Positions 15,301-54,455 of a stretch of DNA of 64,000 nt are shown here, one piece after another (position 1 is the stretch's first letter; the number at the start of each line of letters is the position of its first letter). Location: positions 156,673 to 220,672 of the forward strand of contig JAPLES010000002.1 in assembly GCA_026391075.1 (NCBI GenBank), in the 5' to 3' direction. The notes under the pieces are model-generated. The model was not told where the DNA came from. It did not search any database and worked only from the letters and a program-made list of their open reading frames with translations. This stretch comes from Bacteroidota bacterium (GTDB lineage: Bacteria; Bacteroidota; Bacteroidia; Chitinophagales; LD1). Both the position numbers and the translations under genes were made by a program.

Positions 15301-16974
15301 ATGAATTACCAATTCAACCTTCAAACAATCTTTCCGAGTGCGATAATTATTTTAATTGCACTCATACAATTTGGCTGCGCCAACGAAAGTGTTCCCACCG
15401 GAGGAAAGAAAGACGAAAAACCACCCGAAGCAAAGAAGATTTCACCGACCAATAAATCACTGCACTTCAACAGCACGCAAATAAAAATAACCTTCAACGA
15501 GTTTTTAAAAGAAACAGGATTCACACAAACACTTATCTCTCCTCCGCAGGATAAGAGACCCGAGTTTCATGTTGAGGGCAGAACGCTTACCATAAAATTA
15601 AAGAGTCCGCTGCGCGACAGCACCACATATACCATCAACTTTGCCGATGATGTAAAAGATTTAAACGAAGGAAACACTACAAGTAACTTCAGCTATGTGT
15701 TTTCTACAGGAGACTTTATAGATTCTCAAAAAATTTCGGGTTCTGTGATGCTGGCAAAGGACAATACAAACCAGGAAGGCATTGTAGTGTCGCTTTATCC
15801 GAAGGATTCCGGAGATGGAATTCTGAAATCAAAACCATTTTACTTTGCAAAGACGGATAAGGCAGGGCAATTCAAAATTGAGAACATCAAGGCGGGCAAA
15901 TATTTGGCCTATGCGCTCAAGGACCAGAACTATAATTATATCTACGACCAGCCAAACGAGCTAATCGCCTTTTCAGATTCAATTCTTGACCTTACCGATT
16001 CGGTTAAAGCTGAAGTCAGGCTATTTCTGTTTGATGAAAACAAAAAGAAGGCGCAATTAGATATGGTGAAGGCGTTAAGTCCGGGACAACTACAAATTAG
16101 TTATAACAGACCTATATCAAACTTTAAATTAGACTGGAGGGGACTTTCAAAAGAAGACTTCGCCTATATTTACCCTACGAATGATACTATAATATACTGG
16201 TATTCAAAATATTACATTCAAAAAGATAGCTTCTATCTCAGCGCAAATGATACCATTCTTGATACCGCGAGGTTGGAATTGAAATTTGTGAAGCAAGATT
16301 CTCTCTTCACGGGGAACAATATTTTGTCAGCGGGTGTAAATCAATCAAATAGAAGCAAAGAAGACACTGCTAAGCGCGTGGATTTTACTTTTCAGGAGTT
16401 TAATAAAGCGGTTAAAATAAATCTTACCCGACCTTGCATCAATATAAACGAAACAAAACGCCTTCATTTATTCGAAGATTCAAGCGCAAATTATTCTGAA
16501 TTGAAATTTACGGTAGATGAAAAAACAAAACAGAGTATCACTGCCGATTTTCAGAAAAAGGAAAATGCAAAATACAGTATAGAAATTCCTGATTCAACAG
16601 TGCAGGATATTTTTGGTAAGTGGAATAGAAAACTCGTTTACAAATTTATTACGAATGCAAAAAACAGCTACGGCAATTTGCACATCACACTCAAGACACA
16701 ACACCCCGAAAATTATTACGTGATAAAATTGCTGGATGCAAGTAACACTACAGTGGAGGAATTTTTCTTTACCGGTAATGGTGAAAGAAAAGTTAGTGCA
16801 GAAAATATTTTAGCAGGCAGCTATAAATTTGTAGTGATTGAAGACACCAACAAAAACGGAGTGTGGGATACTGGAATCTTTAAAGACAAAAAACAACCCG
16901 AAAAAATATTCACTTACAAAGAAAGCTACCAACTCAAAGGCGGTTGGGATTTAGATGCTGAAGTGAAATTTTAA
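15301..16974 (+). CDS. Ig-like domain-containing lipoprotein (hypothetical)
   Basis: Lipobox LIQFGC followed by DEKPPEA and a beta-rich sequence, as in SbsA-Ig-like lipoproteins of Bacteroidota. Function is unknown. Confidence 0.55.
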   Translation: MNYQFNLQTIFPSAIIILIALIQFGCANESVPTGGKKDEKPPEAKKISPTNKSLHFNSTQIKITFNEFLKETGFTQTLISPPQDKRPEFHVEGRTLTIKLKSPLRDSTTYTINFADDVKDLNEGNTTSNFSYVFSTGDFIDSQKISGSVMLAKDNTNQEGIVVSLYPKDSGDGILKSKPFYFAKTDKAGQFKIENIKAGKYLAYALKDQNYNYIYDQPNELIAFSDSILDLTDSVKAEVRLFLFDENKKKAQLDMVKALSPGQLQISYNRPISNFKLDWRGLSKEDFAYIYPTNDTIIYWYSKYYIQKDSFYLSANDTILDTARLELKFVKQDSLFTGNNILSAGVNQSNRSKEDTAKRVDFTFQEFNKAVKINLTRPCININETKRLHLFEDSSANYSELKFTVDEKTKQSITADFQKKENAKYSIEIPDSTVQDIFGKWNRKLVYKFITNAKNSYGNLHITLKTQHPENYYVIKLLDASNTTVEEFFFTGNGERKVSAENILAGSYKFVVIEDTNKNGVWDTGIFKDKKQPEKIFTYKESYQLKGGWDLDAEVKF

Positions 16975-18278
16975 TTCACTCCATACTTCTTCGAAAACTT
17001 TGCGTTCAGTTCTTTCTGCTTGTTATTTAAATCAATCTGCCGCCCGCTGATGAAAGAGTATTCGATGTTCGATGTTTTCATATCGAGCACGTCACCGGCA
17101 GAAACAATCAGCGATGCCTCTTTGCCCTTTTCAAGCGAACCAATTTTGTTTTCTACTCCTAAAATTTTTGCGGTGCTGAAAGTAATGGCTGTCAATGCGT
17201 CTTCTTTACTTAAACCATAAGTCGCTGCACTACCAGCATTGAAAGCCAGATTTCTTTCCTGCCAAAAACCACCAGGAATACTTAAACAAAAAAGCACACC
17301 AGCCTTTTTCAACAGTGATGGGGTTTTAAATTGTTGGTCAATATCTGCATCATCGCTAGCTGGTAGTTCGTGTGTTTTGCCGAGAATAACAGCGATATTT
17401 TTTTTCGCGAGTTCATCAGCAATCTGCCAGCTTTCATCGCCACCGCTAATCACCAAATGCAAATTAAATTCTTCAGCAAAAGCAATAGCGTGTTGCATTT
17501 CTTTTACGCGGTCAACATTTACATAAAGTGTTTTAGCTTTTGAAAATAAATCGCGCATGGCTTCGAAACGAAGATTTGTTTTGTCGTGCGCACCGGCTTC
17601 GGCATAGCTTTTTGCATCGCGAAAATAATCGCGCAGAGCGTTCACTTGCTTGTCGTAATCTTTATTAACTTTTGGTGCAGAGATTTCATAGTCCCAACCG
17701 CGCATATTAGGCCAGTTGAGCCACACGCCATCTTCTTTTACTAATGCATCTTCCCAATTCCACGCATCTAATTGCACCACAGCAGACGTTCCGGAAATAG
17801 TTCCATACAGCGGAGTGCTTTGCGCAAACAAAACTCCGTTGCTGCGAACAGTTGGCGTAACCCGTGAGTCAGTATTGTATGCAATGATGGCACGTGCATC
17901 AGGATTGTAATTGCCCACCTCGGCATAATCGTTTGTAGCTCGCACAGCTTCAATTTCATCGAGACCTACTTTTGTGTTAGCTGCAATAATACCCGGGTAA
18001 ATTTGTTTACCGGTACAGTCAATCACCTTACCCATGGGTTCATCTGTTTTGAAAACAGGATTTTCTTCGAGGAAAATAATTTTACCATTCTCGAAACCGA
18101 TGGTAGCGTTTTGCAAAACTTTTCCATTGCCGATATGAATAGTGGCATGAGTCAGGTAAACACTTTGCGATTGCTTAGGTGCGGGTGCGGGCACATCGGA
18201 TTGTGCAAAAAGTGGTGAGTAGTTGGTAGTGAGTATTGAGATAGTTAATACGAGCACTTTAAAATTTACTGGCTTCAT
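16971..18278 (-). CDS. Amidohydrolase family protein (small partner of a pair)
   Basis: Start at ATG 18278 gives the signal peptide MKPVNFKVLVLTISILT. The body has IYPGIIAANTKVGL, a metal-dependent hydrolase fold and a C-terminal GSLEKGKEASLIV. The longer ORF would overlap the upstream gene. Confidence 0.78.
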   Translation of the reverse strand: MKPVNFKVLVLTISILTTNYSPLFAQSDVPAPAPKQSQSVYLTHATIHIGNGKVLQNATIGFENGKIIFLEENPVFKTDEPMGKVIDCTGKQIYPGIIAANTKVGLDEIEAVRATNDYAEVGNYNPDARAIIAYNTDSRVTPTVRSNGVLFAQSTPLYGTISGTSAVVQLDAWNWEDALVKEDGVWLNWPNMRGWDYEISAPKVNKDYDKQVNALRDYFRDAKSYAEAGAHDKTNLRFEAMRDLFSKAKTLYVNVDRVKEMQHAIAFAEEFNLHLVISGGDESWQIADELAKKNIAVILGKTHELPASDDADIDQQFKTPSLLKKAGVLFCLSIPGGFWQERNLAFNAGSAATYGLSKEDALTAITFSTAKILGVENKIGSLEKGKEASLIVSAGDVLDMKTSNIEYSFISGRQIDLNNKQKELNAKFSKKYGVN

Positions 18279-18303
18279 TTTTTCTTTTTTTGAAATGAGA
18301 AAT

Positions 18304-21300
18304 TTATTTGTCGTTATCTCCACATGAATATTCCTTCCTTCCTTTCGCACTTGGCTCTTGTGTAGCACCTCCACCCTTTTTGTCGTCAAGCATTTTCTGA
18401 ATTAAACGGGCGCGTTCTTTCTTAATTTCTTCGCGTTTCTGCAAATCTTTTTCTATGTCGAAGAATAAAATTCCATCTACAAAAGTTTTTTCTGCTTTGG
18501 CATAAATAGAAAGTGGATTCGCGCTCCACACAACGACATCTGCATCTTTTCCAACTTTAATTGAACCGGTTTGCTTATCGAGGTGTAACATTTTTGCAGG
18601 GTTAAGGGTACAAAGCTTCCACGCTTGCTCTTCGGTGAGCCCACCATACTTCATTGATTTGGCAGCCTCCTGATTTAATCTACGCGCCATTTCTGCATCA
18701 TCAGAATTCACGGCAGTGTTGATTCCAACTTTTGTAAGAATTGCCGCGTTGTAAGGAATGGCATCTATCACTTCATACTTGTATGCCCACCAGTCTGCAA
18801 ACGTAGAAGCATTTGCTCCATGCGCTTTCATTTTATCGGCAACTTTATAACCTTCGAGAATATGAGTGAACGTATTCACCTTAAAGTTGAATGAATCTGC
18901 CACGTGCATCAGCATATTTATTTCGCTCTGCACATAACTGTGGCAAGTGATAAATCTTTTGTGGTTCAAAATTTCGCGCAGCGCTTCTAACTCTAAATCA
19001 CACCTCTCCCCCCGCCCCTCTCCGAAAGAGAGGGGAGTAACAGCCGCCTTTCCTTTTGATTGTTTGGTTTTTAAGCCCTCTCCTTCGGAGAGGGTTTGGG
19101 AGAGGTGGCCGTTGTATTCCCTCGCCTTCGTAAAATAATTATAGTAAGTCTGTTCAACACCCATACGCGTTTGCGGATAGCGCACGCGGTTGTGGTCGCC
19201 CCAGTTTGATTGCTTTACATTTTCTCCGAGAGCAAACTTGATGAAGCCATCGGCTCCTTCAATTTTCATTTTTTCCGGTGTATATCCCCAACGAAATTTC
19301 ACGAGCGCACTTTGTCCGCCAATAGGATTTGCCGAACCGTGCAACAGTTGCGCGCCAATAACCCCACCGGCAAGCTGACGATAAATATTAATGTCATCGC
19401 AGCTTACCACATCGCCAATACGAACTTCCGCGCTACTGGCTTTTGTTCCTTCGTTAACGCCTTCCTGAATAGCAATGTGATTGTGCTCATCAATAATTCC
19501 GGCAGTAACAAATTTGTTAGTGGCATCAATTGTTTTGCAATCGGCACAGGCTAAGTTTTTTCCGAAAGAAGAAATTTTTCCTGTGCGAATAATTACATCG
19601 GTGTTTTGTAAAATGCCCTCTGCTTCGTTTGTCCAAACAGTTCCGTTTTTAATCAGGAAATTTTCTTGCGTAGGAATTTGTTCGTTGCCATAACCGAGAA
19701 ATGGAAAAATTACTTTGCCCAAATTCTTGGTTATATCAATCGTGTCTTTCTTTGGTTTCGTTGTGTCGGCATCCGGTCCTTTTATTTGTGCAGCACTCCA
19801 GGTTATCCAATCGCCATTCGGCATTTGGCCATTTCCGCTCCATGATTTTGTATTGTAGTCAATCGTTCCGGTCAAACGAATTTTACTTTGCTCAACTTTT
19901 TTATCGATTGAAAAAGAAAGAGAAATGTCGTTGTCTTTGTAAGAAAGTTTTACATCCAATTTATTTGTATCGCTCAAAATTAGTTGCGCTTTAGGTGAAG
20001 AAGCATCGCCACTTAATCTGAGTTTGTATTTATTACTACTTACTGCCAGAGCGTATTCTCCGCGAATATCTTTTGCATCAAACGCTTTTATTTCGTAGCG
20101 TTTTCCTTGAATCCAGTTTTCGTTTATCTCACATTGTGCATCGAACAAAGGTTTTGATGTAATGAAGAAGTTCGCCAACTTTCCAGCATCAAGTGAGCCA
20201 ACTTTATCATATACGTTTACAAACATTGCTGGGTTATAAGTGAGCGACTTCAACGCAAGTGTAGAATCCAAACCATACTTCACGGCCTTTCGAAGATTGC
20301 TGAGAAAATCATCTTTCTTTTCTACATCAGAAGCAGTGAGCGAAAAATCAATTCCTGCTTTTGCAAGAGCCGCACAATTGGTTGGAGCGAGTTCCCAATT
20401 TTTCATTTCTTCCAATGAAACCCAGTTTGCTTTGTACGGGTCTTCTACATCAAACGCCTTCGGAAAATTTAATGAGGTAATGATTTTTGCATTGCTCTTT
20501 TTAATTTCATCAATGCGTTTGTATTCATCGCCTTTTGTTTTGATGATGTATTGCACATTGAATTCATCGCCTAATTTATCAGCCCGTAAGACTTTTTGCC
20601 AATCGCCACCGGCATCAAAAATTTGTGGAATAGTTTGTTCCAAATTCCACTCTTGCAAATTGATGTTGAACTCTTTTTTATCAATAGAAGTCTTATACCA
20701 CTGTGCATCGTAATACGTTTGACGAATGAGCGCGATACTTCCCATCAACGAACTTGGATAGTCTTGTGTTGAACTTCCTTTGTTGAAAGAATAATTTGCG
20801 GTGGCATCTGCCTTCACTAAAACAAAATTTTCTTTGTCGTTGTTGAGTGTAACCACCGCACCGGTGCCGCGCGCAATACCATCTTTCTTATTTGTAAGCA
20901 CTGCACCAAAACCAATTTTACGCAAATCATCTGCCTTGCCTTCGTTCACCGTAAAGTTTCTATCCGCATGAAAATCGGTGTGAATAGCTTGGTTCCAACC
21001 ATACGCGCCTTTAATGTTTGATTCCATTTGCGGGTCTTCACTTCCTTTGGGTTTTGCTACATCGGGCATTCCGTAATCAGAAAAAACATCAATGAAAGAA
21101 GGGTAGATAAATTTTCCTTTGAGGTCGTGAATAATAAAACCCACCTCTCCTAAATCCTCTCCGAAGGAGAGGACTTTAAATACACGTCCATTTTTAATGA
21201 GCAGCGTTGCTGAATCAATTTTCTTGTTGTAAGAAATAAAAATGGTGGCGTTGGTGAAGGCATGCTTGCCTTCGCGGTAATCATCGGGCCCATTGGTTTT

Positions 21301-21372
21301 GAAGGTGGTTTCTTGTGCGAACAGATAGAAGACAATAGACAATAGACAATAAACAAGTGCAAGTTTACGCAT
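18304..21372 (-). CDS. Large amidohydrolase family protein (carries three in-frame palindromic repeat units)
   Basis: Start at ATG 21372 gives the signal peptide MRKLALVYCLLSIVFYLFAQ. Contains IYPSFID, GIIDEHNHIA (HxH metal site), RFITCHSYVQSEINM and GSIKVGKDADVVVW. Confidence 0.8.
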   Translation of the reverse strand: MRKLALVYCLLSIVFYLFAQETTFKTNGPDDYREGKHAFTNATIFISYNKKIDSATLLIKNGRVFKVLSFGEDLGEVGFIIHDLKGKFIYPSFIDVFSDYGMPDVAKPKGSEDPQMESNIKGAYGWNQAIHTDFHADRNFTVNEGKADDLRKIGFGAVLTNKKDGIARGTGAVVTLNNDKENFVLVKADATANYSFNKGSSTQDYPSSLMGSIALIRQTYYDAQWYKTSIDKKEFNINLQEWNLEQTIPQIFDAGGDWQKVLRADKLGDEFNVQYIIKTKGDEYKRIDEIKKSNAKIITSLNFPKAFDVEDPYKANWVSLEEMKNWELAPTNCAALAKAGIDFSLTASDVEKKDDFLSNLRKAVKYGLDSTLALKSLTYNPAMFVNVYDKVGSLDAGKLANFFITSKPLFDAQCEINENWIQGKRYEIKAFDAKDIRGEYALAVSSNKYKLRLSGDASSPKAQLILSDTNKLDVKLSYKDNDISLSFSIDKKVEQSKIRLTGTIDYNTKSWSGNGQMPNGDWITWSAAQIKGPDADTTKPKKDTIDITKNLGKVIFPFLGYGNEQIPTQENFLIKNGTVWTNEAEGILQNTDVIIRTGKISSFGKNLACADCKTIDATNKFVTAGIIDEHNHIAIQEGVNEGTKASSAEVRIGDVVSCDDINIYRQLAGGVIGAQLLHGSANPIGGQSALVKFRWGYTPEKMKIEGADGFIKFALGENVKQSNWGDHNRVRYPQTRMGVEQTYYNYFTKAREYNGHLSQTLSEGEGLKTKQSKGKAAVTPLSFGEGRGERCDLELEALREILNHKRFITCHSYVQSEINMLMHVADSFNFKVNTFTHILEGYKVADKMKAHGANASTFADWWAYKYEVIDAIPYNAAILTKVGINTAVNSDDAEMARRLNQEAAKSMKYGGLTEEQAWKLCTLNPAKMLHLDKQTGSIKVGKDADVVVWSANPLSIYAKAEKTFVDGILFFDIEKDLQKREEIKKERARLIQKMLDDKKGGGATQEPSAKGRKEYSCGDNDK
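19000..19108. repeat. Composite palindromic element: two inverted ~37-bp hairpin units, in-frame inside the amidohydrolase CDS
   Basis: The left unit is cacctctccc-cccg-cccctctc cgaaa gagagggg. The right unit is ccctctcc ttcg ggagaggg-tttg-ggagaggtgg. The outer ends (19001-19010 and 19098-19108) are reverse complements. Confidence 0.85.
21140..21180. repeat. Single copy of the ~37-bp hairpin unit, in-frame in the same CDS
   Basis: cccacctctcc-taaat-cctctcc gaa ggagagg-actttaaa. Confidence 0.8.
21324..21358. repeat. Heptamer tandem array (GACAATA type, 3 perfect + 2 degenerate units)
   Basis: gatagaa gacaata gacaata gacaata aacaagt. The reverse strand encodes LVYCLLSIV of a signal peptide. 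Confidence 0.85.
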
Positions 21373-21460
21373 AGGGAAATTTTTTTGAGCGAGTGAAAAT
21401 AGAATTTTACTTTTCACTCACCGATGAAGAAAGTTGCTTCATCGTCAAACAACAAAGCCC

Positions 21461-53323: not shown

Positions 53324-53857
53324 TTATAGGAGTTCTCTCTTTTTCAATTCTTTCAAAATAATTCTAAACCAAAATGAATACTGTTCTGCATTTTTCTCAA
53401 TGTCTTTTTCCAGCTCTTCAGTTTTCACCCAGCGCACCGCAGCCACCTCATCTTTGTTGAATTCAAATGCATCATCAAACACCCCGGTGAAAACAGTATC
53501 GTATTCCCATTCGGTCAATCCGCTTTTTTCATCATGCGCTTTGTAGATGAAATGGAACTCTTCTTTCAACGGAATTTTAATTCCGATTTCTTCAAACAAT
53601 CTTCGCTCTGCTGCCTGCTGAAAACTTTCATCCCTGCGCGGATGGCTGCAACAGGTATTGCTCCAAATGCCTGCAAAATGATATTTGCTCAATGCGCGTT
53701 GCTGCACCAATTGTTCACCCTTGCTATTGAAAATAATTACGCTGATAGCGCGATGAAGCAATGCTTTGGTATGTGCCTCTAACTTGCCTACATAACCGAG
53801 AACATTATTCTCTTCATCAACCAAAACAACCTGTTCTTCCTGAATGAAATTTTCCAT
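53324..53857 (-). CDS. idi: Isopentenyl-diphosphate delta-isomerase, type 1 (Nudix fold)
   Basis: Contains LHRAISVIIFN, WSNTCCSHP (catalytic Cys), AAERRLFEEIGI and EWEYD. Confidence 0.85.
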   Translation of the reverse strand: MENFIQEEQVVLVDEENNVLGYVGKLEAHTKALLHRAISVIIFNSKGEQLVQQRALSKYHFAGIWSNTCCSHPRRDESFQQAAERRLFEEIGIKIPLKEEFHFIYKAHDEKSGLTEWEYDTVFTGVFDDAFEFNKDEVAAVRWVKTEELEKDIEKNAEQYSFWFRIILKELKKRELL

Positions 53858-53869
53858 TGCATTTTGTAT

Positions 53870-53906
53870 TTAAGTCCTCTCCTTCGAGGAGGATTTAGGT
53901 GGGGCT
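53870..53906. repeat. Degenerate inverted copy of the ~37-bp hairpin unit, overlapping a stop codon
   Basis: The reverse complement, ccccacct-aaatcctcctcgaaggagaggacttaaa, aligns to 21140-21180 with a few mismatches and a 4-nt gap. Confidence 0.7.
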
Positions 53907-54416
53907 TTTAAACCAAGATGAATACATCACATAATTATTGCTGATGCGCTCAATTAAATCTTTGAATTTTTCTTTGTTCACATCCTTCACTTTTTTTGCG
54001 GGAACTCCTGCGTAAATACTTCCGGGCTCCACAATTGTGTTTTCTAAAACTATAGCCCCCGCAGCTATAATGCTGTTTTCGCCAATCACCGCGTGGTCCA
54101 TTACAATGGCTCCCATGCCAATGAGCACATTGTCGTGCACGGTGCATCCATGCACAATAGCGCGGTGACCAATGCTAACATTGTTGCCGATATTGAGCGG
54201 AGCTTTTTGATATGTGCAATGAAGAATAGCTCCGTCCTGCACATTCACTTTGTTGCCCATGCGTATGTAATGCACATCACCACGCACCACCGCCTGAAAC
54301 CAAATGCTGCAATCGTCTCCTGTTATTACATCGCCAACAACCGTGGCGTTTTCGGCAATAAAATTATTGCTGCCGAATTTTGGGTGAATATCATTTACAG
54401 GAAGAATGAGTGCCAT
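53895..54416 (-). CDS. Gamma-carbonic-anhydrase-like hexapeptide-repeat protein
   Basis: Left-handed beta-helix repeats with VRGDV..IRMGNKVNVQDGAILH..IGHRAIVHGC. The stop codon lies inside a repeat unit. ATG 54416 is preferred. Confidence 0.85.
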   Translation of the reverse strand: MALILPVNDIHPKFGSNNFIAENATVVGDVITGDDCSIWFQAVVRGDVHYIRMGNKVNVQDGAILHCTYQKAPLNIGNNVSIGHRAIVHGCTVHDNVLIGMGAIVMDHAVIGENSIIAAGAIVLENTIVEPGSIYAGVPAKKVKDVNKEKFKDLIERISNNYVMYSSWFKSPT

Positions 54417-54455
54417 ACTTAAAATCAAACATAAGAATTATGCGAAAAAGGCAGG

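Follow-up and report, generated by a model that had tools for sequence, protein, structure and literature searches.

An in-frame palindromic element in a Bacteroidota amidohydrolase gene, probably a small member of a mobile DNA family with a DUF559-bearing full-length form

The window analysed here is a stretch of 64,000 nucleotides from a metagenome-assembled genome (MAG) of a Bacteroidota bacterium (contig JAPLES010000002.1 of assembly GCA_026391075.1). Its minus strand encodes a 1022-aa amidohydrolase, and a palindromic composite element is read in frame within this gene. The product is 100% identical to a 1022-aa database protein, P0001, from a "Bacteroidetes bacterium" MAG. An original prediction had described a palindromic composite of ~108 bp, built from two inverted 37-bp units with GC hairpins. 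The element and its inverted, hairpin-bearing units are real, and the way in which the prediction read them is supported; measured by the terminal repeat, the composite is 107 nt long, the units are ~32-35 nt, and the hairpin loops, predicted as GAAR, are 5 and 3 nt. R1, a covariance model trained on members of the family, finds four units in the window, namely the two in the composite and two more that the prediction had not mentioned. The features of the locus are as follows.

18304..21372, minus strand: host gene for the 1022-aa amidohydrolase, with Amidohydro_1 (PF01979) and Amidohydro_3 (PF07969) domains; intact and conserved, with ~7800 homologues
19001..19107, minus strand: composite palindromic element, two inverted foot-plus-hairpin units flanking a spacer; in-frame residues H756-C791 of the host protein
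19001..19035, plus strand: unit 1, with foot CACCTCTCCC (19001-19010), linker CCCGC and hairpin CCCCTCTC-CGAAA-GAGAGGGG (19015-19035); minus-strand peptide ..PLSFGEGRGER(C)
19000-19038, plus strand: match of R1 to unit 1, E = 5.6e-9
19036..19075, minus strand: spacer of 40 nt, CTTAAAAACCAAACAATCAAAAGGAAAGGCGGCTGTTACT on the minus strand, encoding LKTKQSKGKAAVT
19076..19107, minus strand: unit 2, with hairpin CCCTCTCC-TTC-GGAGAGGG (19076-19094), linker TTT and foot GGGAGAGGTG (19098-19107); minus-strand peptide HLSQTLSEGEG
19072-19110, minus strand: match of R1 to unit 2, E = 2.3e-8

The composite reads CACCTCTCCC-CCCGC-CCCTCTCCGAAAGAGAGGGG, then the 40-nt spacer, then CCCTCTCCTTCGGAGAGGG-TTT-GGGAGAGGTG. 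The outermost nucleotides are reverse complementary as predicted, perfectly over 10 nt (CACCTCTCCC at 19001-19010 and GGGAGAGGTG at 19098-19107), and the 29-nt arms at 19006-19034 and 19076-19104 are 83% complementary. Both hairpins have a perfect stem of 8 bp, formed in unit 1 by CCCCTCTC (19015-19022) and GAGAGGGG (19028-19035) around the 5-nt loop, and in unit 2 by CCCTCTCC (19076-19083) and GGAGAGGG (19087-19094) around the 3-nt loop. The motif CCCTCTC-N3-9-GAGAGGG occurs twice in the window against an expectation of 0.00 from 100 shuffles. The region folds as one long hairpin, at -60.4 kcal/mol as RNA (z = -5.1) and -28 kcal/mol as DNA (z = -4.4), and R1 scores its two arms at 46.4 and 43.8 bits. 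Rfam, searched with positions 18700-19400 at E up to 10, gave just generic miRNA-type hairpin matches far below thresholds and no family match.

The minus-strand open reading frame (ORF) 18304..21417 stays open across the whole composite, as had been claimed, and reads ...KAREYNGHLSQTLSEGEGLKTKQSKGKAAVTPLSFGEGRGERCDLELEALREIL... there. Unit sequence is thus read in both orientations in one protein, as LSEGEG and LSFGEGRGE, a pattern that the prediction had picked out and that is also family-wide. In an alignment of 120 homologues the composite sits between the conserved blocks KAREY and RRDLELDAL, again as proposed, in the host family's one strongly length-variable loop (~10-38 aa). The other 119 homologues lack the peptide and have unrelated loops of ~10-27 aa at this site. 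In the sister lineage P0002, which adjoins P0001 in a neighbour-joining tree, no palindrome is present at the site on the DNA level. A widespread ancestral loop has 19 aa (QKQWxxYNxAKVKGVSPRR). The element codes for 36 residues, yet the loop grows by just 19 aa, so host codons were overwritten. Judged from this alignment, the event in the window is a replacement of most of the ancestral 19-aa loop and not the clean in-frame insertion that had been envisaged. The element foot even supplies the Arg that aligns with the invariant R790. In the AlphaFold2 model of the host protein (mean pLDDT 83.8) the insert is coil with pLDDT < 50 (residues 767-786) between helices 736-765 and 793-802. A low-confidence coil between confident helices is, in such a model, the expected look of a tolerated surface loop, the kind of site that the prediction had proposed to test for.

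The unit is widespread, and neither of the outcomes named beforehand as refuting the prediction (orthologues with the peptide, or a unit confined to the window) is seen. The exact pattern CCTCTCCC-N2-6-CCCTCTC-N5-GAGAGGG, scanned across species-representative genomes, matched at least 120 genome stretches, and it also matches 40 IMG/VR stretches. Among the matches listed, ~75 of 80 record titles name Bacteroidota, from many orders and with cultured isolates included (Prevotella, Flavobacterium, Chitinophagaceae, Paludibacter, Mucilaginibacter and Lewinella are represented). Exact matches also occur in records labelled Betaproteobacteria bacterium, Melainabacteria, Nitrotoga, Methanomethylophilaceae archaeon and Dehalococcoidales (L001, L026, L038, L050, L054); mis-binning of contigs or genuine transfer may explain these. 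The foot is CCTC(T/A)CCC in 130 exact matches and in an alignment of 64 sequences. The stem has one compensatory pair, U-A to C-G in 9 of the 64 sequences, which carries little weight because the alignment was selected for hairpins. Each arm type has its own foot type, and a permutation test of covariation between foot and adjacent hairpin arm was not significant, since all variants are G/A-rich.

Most family copies are intergenic; a sizeable minority, in either orientation, lie in open frames that continue across them. The share inside ORFs is 18%-37%, according to the stringency of the ORF definition. With the strict definition, 24 of 130 exact matches (18%) are deep within open frames of at least 200 codons, and 16 of these 24 use the two frames of the window copy, against 8 expected. 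With a looser gene definition 37% of the units are genic and 53% intergenic in surrounding DNA that is 85% coding, so that units are depleted from genes, though many copies read through. The window copy shares both of its reading frames with several full elements of the kind described next.

Five DUF559 domains were found in the loci selected by the unit. All five are in frame inside large housekeeping ORFs, namely those of an IcmF-like mutase, leucyl-tRNA synthetase (LeuRS), MetH (twice, at different sites) and IleRS, and all are bracketed by unit-derived sequence wherever sequence is visible. For the three inserts scanned, the Pfam model PF04480 gives E-values from 1e-33 to 1e-35 (about 1e-34). 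A DUF559 insert also matches a solved DUF559 protein (PDB 3HRL, E = 1.5e-17), and NCBIfam NF007294 is matched at E = 4.6e-22, below the cut-off of that model. The full-length form measures ~450-600 bp, and the frame of its DUF559 domain (Vsr-like, PD-(D/E)xK fold) usually continues through both ends. In the reciprocal test, 80 metagenome loci were picked solely by DUF559 protein similarity. A strict unit detector found 140 units in these 482 kb against 6 after shuffling. Forty forward units lie within 250 nt upstream of the DUF559 domain and 48 reverse units within 250 nt downstream, while the other 250-nt bins hold 0-3 units each; at least one flanking unit is present at 53 of the 80 loci and units are on both sides at 22. 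By this clustering, the units are the inverted ends of DUF559-bearing elements.

The 80 domains are mostly internal to long ORFs (~53), with 7 N-terminal fusions and ~18 stand-alone copies. Counted together, ~60 of the 80 elements form in-frame fusions with host ORFs, with host motifs readable on both sides, a share that may be inflated since these loci are the ones closest to an in-frame query. Hosts include LeuRS (~25 loci), MetH, IcmF-like mutase, acetyl-CoA synthetase, RecG, ValRS, MetRS, guanylate kinase and IspF. Database DUF559 proteins often start or finish with unit peptides. Stand-alone DUF559 proteins of 130-144 aa (P0125, P0137, P0190, P0193, P0214) bear names such as methylmalonyl-CoA mutase, leucyl-tRNA synthetase, RecG and guanylate kinase, and these housekeeping names are probably annotation carried over from in-frame hosts.

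The LeuRS elements (~25 of 80 loci) share one site, between NWIGKSxGA...F and VFTTRPDT, and their unit types differ (L170, L172, L173, L176, L177, L181, L190, L191, L194, L198, L201, L202, L208-L211, L213, L214, L216, L221, L244, L247, L053). Old vertical inheritance combined with turnover of the ends could explain the single site, as could repeated homing. Elements also occupy a second LeuRS site, ahead of STMPGWAGSSWY. Units are multiplied in tandem beside DUF559 domains in L183 and L191 and in P0228, P0234 and P0238 (PHPNPLSEGEGLNS three times, for example, or KVLSFGEDLGEA repeated), which suggests local duplication at element ends.

One mutase gene, in locus L020, unites all forms of the element, with one full copy, one empty composite and one solo unit. 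Its full and empty copies share their ends (GCCTCACCC...GGTGAGGC). Distances between a forward unit and the reverse unit that follows have a bimodal distribution, with one class at 0-150 nt (empty composites, ~87-167 bp) and another at 350-600 nt (with DUF559), and the window copy falls in the first. Empty composites can multiply: two copies in L106 (L106a, L106b) and one in L082, of another subfamily than that of the window, are near-identical over 114 nt, spacer included. These 114-nt composites (L106 2718-2831 and 4361-4475; L082 3011-3124) also resemble one another in their flanks (GCATTTA|ACCTC... and ...GAGGT|CTGCAA), so the true ends may lie 2-4 nt beyond the foot, or there may be a target preference.

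Part of the window spacer, AAAAGGAAAGGCGG, resembles, by eye and without a statistic, the composite spacer in the orthologue L121 as well as the inner left end of the full DUF559 element in L020. We considered whether the spacer could instead be a remnant of the host loop (ancestral AKVKGVSP, window KGKAAVTP). This was judged less likely, because the window and L121 spacers are closer to each other and to the inner left end in L020 than to ancestral DNA, and because the two lineages are separated by unit-free relatives.

The host gene contains a solo unit of its own.

21141..21172, plus strand: solo unit in the host gene, with foot CCACCTCTCC, linker TAAAT and hairpin CCTCTCC-GAA-GGAGAGG; R1 match at 21139-21177, 37.5 bits, E = 6.5e-7

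On the minus strand it is read as KVLSFGEDLGEVG, at about residues 66-78, where it replaces an ancestral beta-turn of nearly equal length (KVVDAGKNIS.PKGA). The unit is closely similar to the right end that the full DUF559 element has in L020, down to the inner AAAGT. At the same site the orthologue P0003 (L126, 10204-10233) has a variant unit with CCCTCCCC stems and the sister P0002 has none.

We consider it probable that the window element is a non-autonomous member, resembling a miniature inverted-repeat transposable element (MITE), of a Bacteroidota-wide mobile DNA family whose full-length form carries DUF559. Direct observation covers the anatomy of the element, its in-frame state, its distribution, the position and orientation of units around DUF559, and the full, empty and solo forms. 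Family members end in inverted units that combine a C/T-rich foot with an adjoining 8-bp GC hairpin. The core of these ends (foot and hairpin arms) has no stop codon in any frame, and they encode peptides rich in Gly, Ser, Pro and Glu, such as LSxxLSxGEG and LSFGEGRGE; hence the host protein stays uninterrupted where a copy lies in frame in a permissive surface loop. Such stop-free ends encoding flexible peptides may be what allows survival inside genes. In the full-length form the endonuclease domain would be made as part of the host protein. Just the two ends and a 40-nt spacer are present in the window copy, which overwrote most of the 19-aa variable loop and would be translated as a disordered 36-aa loop. 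The empty form presumably derives from the full form.

Spread is likely to be driven by the DUF559 endonuclease. It may proceed by copy-and-replace, in which a break or nick is mended by short-patch repair templated by another copy, and not by cut-and-paste. The net length gain is far below element size in all four cases in the amidohydrolase gene family (+19 aa for the 36-aa element, ~+5 for 22, +2 for ~11, and +6). Moreover, both host sites hold units with different stems and feet in close relatives, with a unit-free sister lineage between them. The small gains and the differing units at shared sites are sequence comparisons that hint at copy-and-replace over simple insertion.

Several points weigh against this explanation. 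No clean empty site and no target-site duplication were found; specifically, no direct repeat flanks the window copy or the composites in L039, L084, L099, L115, L119 and L106. An HMMER scan of 1.84 billion representatives with the 39-aa insert peptide found no other protein carrying the window copy's spacer; it gave 3 matches, of which the two inspected are unrelated tandem-repeat proteins. There is no DUF559 ORF within the window. Unpaired units outnumber full-length pairs in the unit-selected loci (143 against 4), and the units may be moved by something other than DUF559. The structures alone may be read in both directions, from full to empty and from empty to full. Repeated strikes on a permissive site, followed by trimming, would account equally well for the small gains and the differing units. 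The in-frame share of full-length elements carries the sampling bias noted above. Lastly, the nuclease activity of DUF559, the mobility of the element and translation of the insert are predictions.

One alternative fits much of the same evidence. Units and composites may have spread by a mechanism of their own, DUF559 being a secondary homing gene that targets the palindrome centre and the empty composites being its unoccupied targets. Such an invader would produce the same anatomy, with the domain exactly between inverted units and with ends and inner flanks common to empty and full forms, and it would fit the large excess of solo units and empties over DUF559 copies. Vsr-like nucleases are known homing enzymes, which invade genes and are found in fractured genes (PMC2677866). 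It gives, however, no account of how the units spread. The DUF559 frame usually crosses both units and continues in the host ORF; expression of the domain thus seems to rely on the units and on the host frame. The tandem multiplication of units right beside DUF559 (L183, L191, P0228, P0234) also speaks against it. We regard this alternative as unlikely.

The composite could also be a doublet (REPIN) of repetitive extragenic palindromic (REP) sequences, moved in trans by a REP-associated tyrosine transposase (RAYT) of the IS200/IS605 Y1 HUH family. Like REPs (20-40 nt), the units are hairpins of ~35 nt, often set as inverted doublets that fold as one long hairpin, and are mostly intergenic. Intragenic REPs read in frame are documented, some copies encoding 20-30 aa (PMC3733652), and in Bacteroidetes, RAYTs of subclass 2.6 have "atypical secondary structures" on their flanks, of which the genome holds more copies (PMC6006769). 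The window family nevertheless lacks the GTAG or CGTC tag, its 5´ foot being CCTC(T/A)CCC, and no RAYT association was found in 1.07 Mb of loci and the window. A Y1 motif scan of this sequence gave two weak Y1-like ORFs, one at 21.9 bits against a Pfam cut-off of 23, neither of them flanked by units. The gene that the units actually bracket is DUF559, with a PD-(D/E)xK fold and not an HUH Y1 enzyme, and it lies between the units in one continuous frame. We rate a REPIN as quite improbable here.

Selection by the host on an immobile feature, either a flexible linker or an mRNA or DNA hairpin through which amidohydrolase translation or transcription is regulated, would be in keeping with the two perfect hairpins, the very stable RNA fold (-60 kcal/mol) and the foot-supplied Arg aligned with R790. 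We hold it to be highly improbable, as the segment is missing from the sister lineage and 119 other aligned homologues, the unit recurs in unrelated genes and intergenic DNA across a phylum, Rfam has no matching family, and the encoded peptide is modelled as disordered. That the palindrome arose by chance, for which the C/T-rich, low-complexity motif might be cited, is next to inconceivable given two hairpin matches against 0.00 in shuffles, fold z-scores of -4.4 and -5.1, covariance-model E-values of 6e-9 and 2e-8, and hundreds of related copies elsewhere.

The element has counterparts among several known systems. Rickettsia palindromic elements (RPE-1 to RPE-8), with which the original prediction had compared it, are likewise palindromic repeats of ~100 bp that occur between genes and in frame in functional genes, adding peptide at permissive surface sites. 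They differ in host phylum, and the window family has ends that bracket a DUF559 endonuclease domain; to our knowledge, no enzyme gene is associated with RPEs. In addition, the window unit is a foot with a short GC hairpin, and the event overwrites host residues and does not just add to them. Since the source is a Bacteroidota MAG, the link is an analogy only: the likeness to RPEs, which extends to intergenic as well as in-frame copies, is one of behaviour and not of membership, and none is claimed.

Bacterial MITEs (Nezha, NEMIS/Correia, RUP) are similarly short, non-coding and multicopy, with terminal inverted repeats and ends in common with a longer gene-bearing form, here seen in other genomes. 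In the window family, by contrast, target-site duplication is not seen, the longer form is not a DDE-transposase insertion sequence, and in-frame residence appears to be the majority state of that form. Conceptually, the full-length form comes closest to inteins and to homing-endonuclease genes, among them Vsr-like ones that fracture genes (PMC2677866) and I-Bth0305I. These too are endonuclease-bearing selfish DNA in housekeeping genes (tRNA synthetases, MetH, RecG), and the nuclease fold is related to Vsr. Unlike them, the family has no Hint splicing domain or intron (the three inserts scanned match just DUF559 and a related nuclease model). The host ORF is unbroken and unspliced, and the domain would remain in the host protein, with the insert junction peptides derived from the units (LSKGEG.. 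and ..LSFGEGRGE). Hairpin inverted-repeat ends and the many host sites set it further apart.

A more far-reaching idea, which we put forward tentatively as a possibility, is that the family is an unrecognised class of mobile element, an endonuclease cassette without promoter or start codon of its own that has stop-free hairpin ends and combines the following features. Translation of the cassette would require that it land in frame within a host gene that is expressed. Like an intein without splicing, it would afterwards remain in the mature host protein, and it would spread by nick- or break-induced short-patch copying over host codons. The numerous solo ends and empty composites, that of the window included, would be its footprints, and these would amount to a steady supply of new loop sequence in Bacteroidota proteins.

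Searches of a full-text library yielded papers on intragenic REPs, RPEs, Bacteroidetes RAYTs and Vsr-like homing endonucleases and no description of a hairpin/DUF559 family in Bacteroidota, an absence that is no proof of novelty. The larger pattern appears undescribed, and the view that such behaviour is not established in Bacteroidota agrees with this. The link to DUF559 lay outside the reach of the original prediction and changes the likely mechanism. If the favoured explanation is true, the family would feed peptide insertions and replacements into conserved enzymes across the phylum, and it would extend the phenomenon of the Rickettsia palindromic elements to Bacteroidota. It would tie a hairpin repeat family to an endonuclease domain of unknown function and so give DUF559 a testable role, and it suggests a parasitic strategy in which in-frame residence takes the place of splicing. 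It would also account for 130-aa DUF559 proteins named "leucyl-tRNA synthetase" or "RecG" and for the origin of low-complexity peptides common in Bacteroidota protein sets, such as PSPKERG and LSFGEGRGE. Cultured carriers exist (Mucilaginibacter, Flavobacterium, Segatella maculosa DSM 19339), so these questions are open to experiment.

The fourth unit in the window is a decayed copy far from the amidohydrolase gene.

53871..53909, minus strand: decayed solo unit at the 3´ end of a hexapeptide-repeat gene; R1 match, 22.1 bits, E = 0.002

The hexapeptide-repeat gene 53895..54428(-) takes its four C-terminal residues (KSPT) from the foot of this unit and its TAA stop from the TAAAT linker, and the hairpin falls in the 37-nt gap ahead of the gene 53324..53857(-). 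Immediately downstream of the host gene lies a second amidohydrolase gene (472 aa, 16971-18389, minus strand). The pair is kept in the orthologous loci L122 and L124-L127, and in L122 a 94-aa PDDEXK_3 (PF13366) ORF lies between the two genes.

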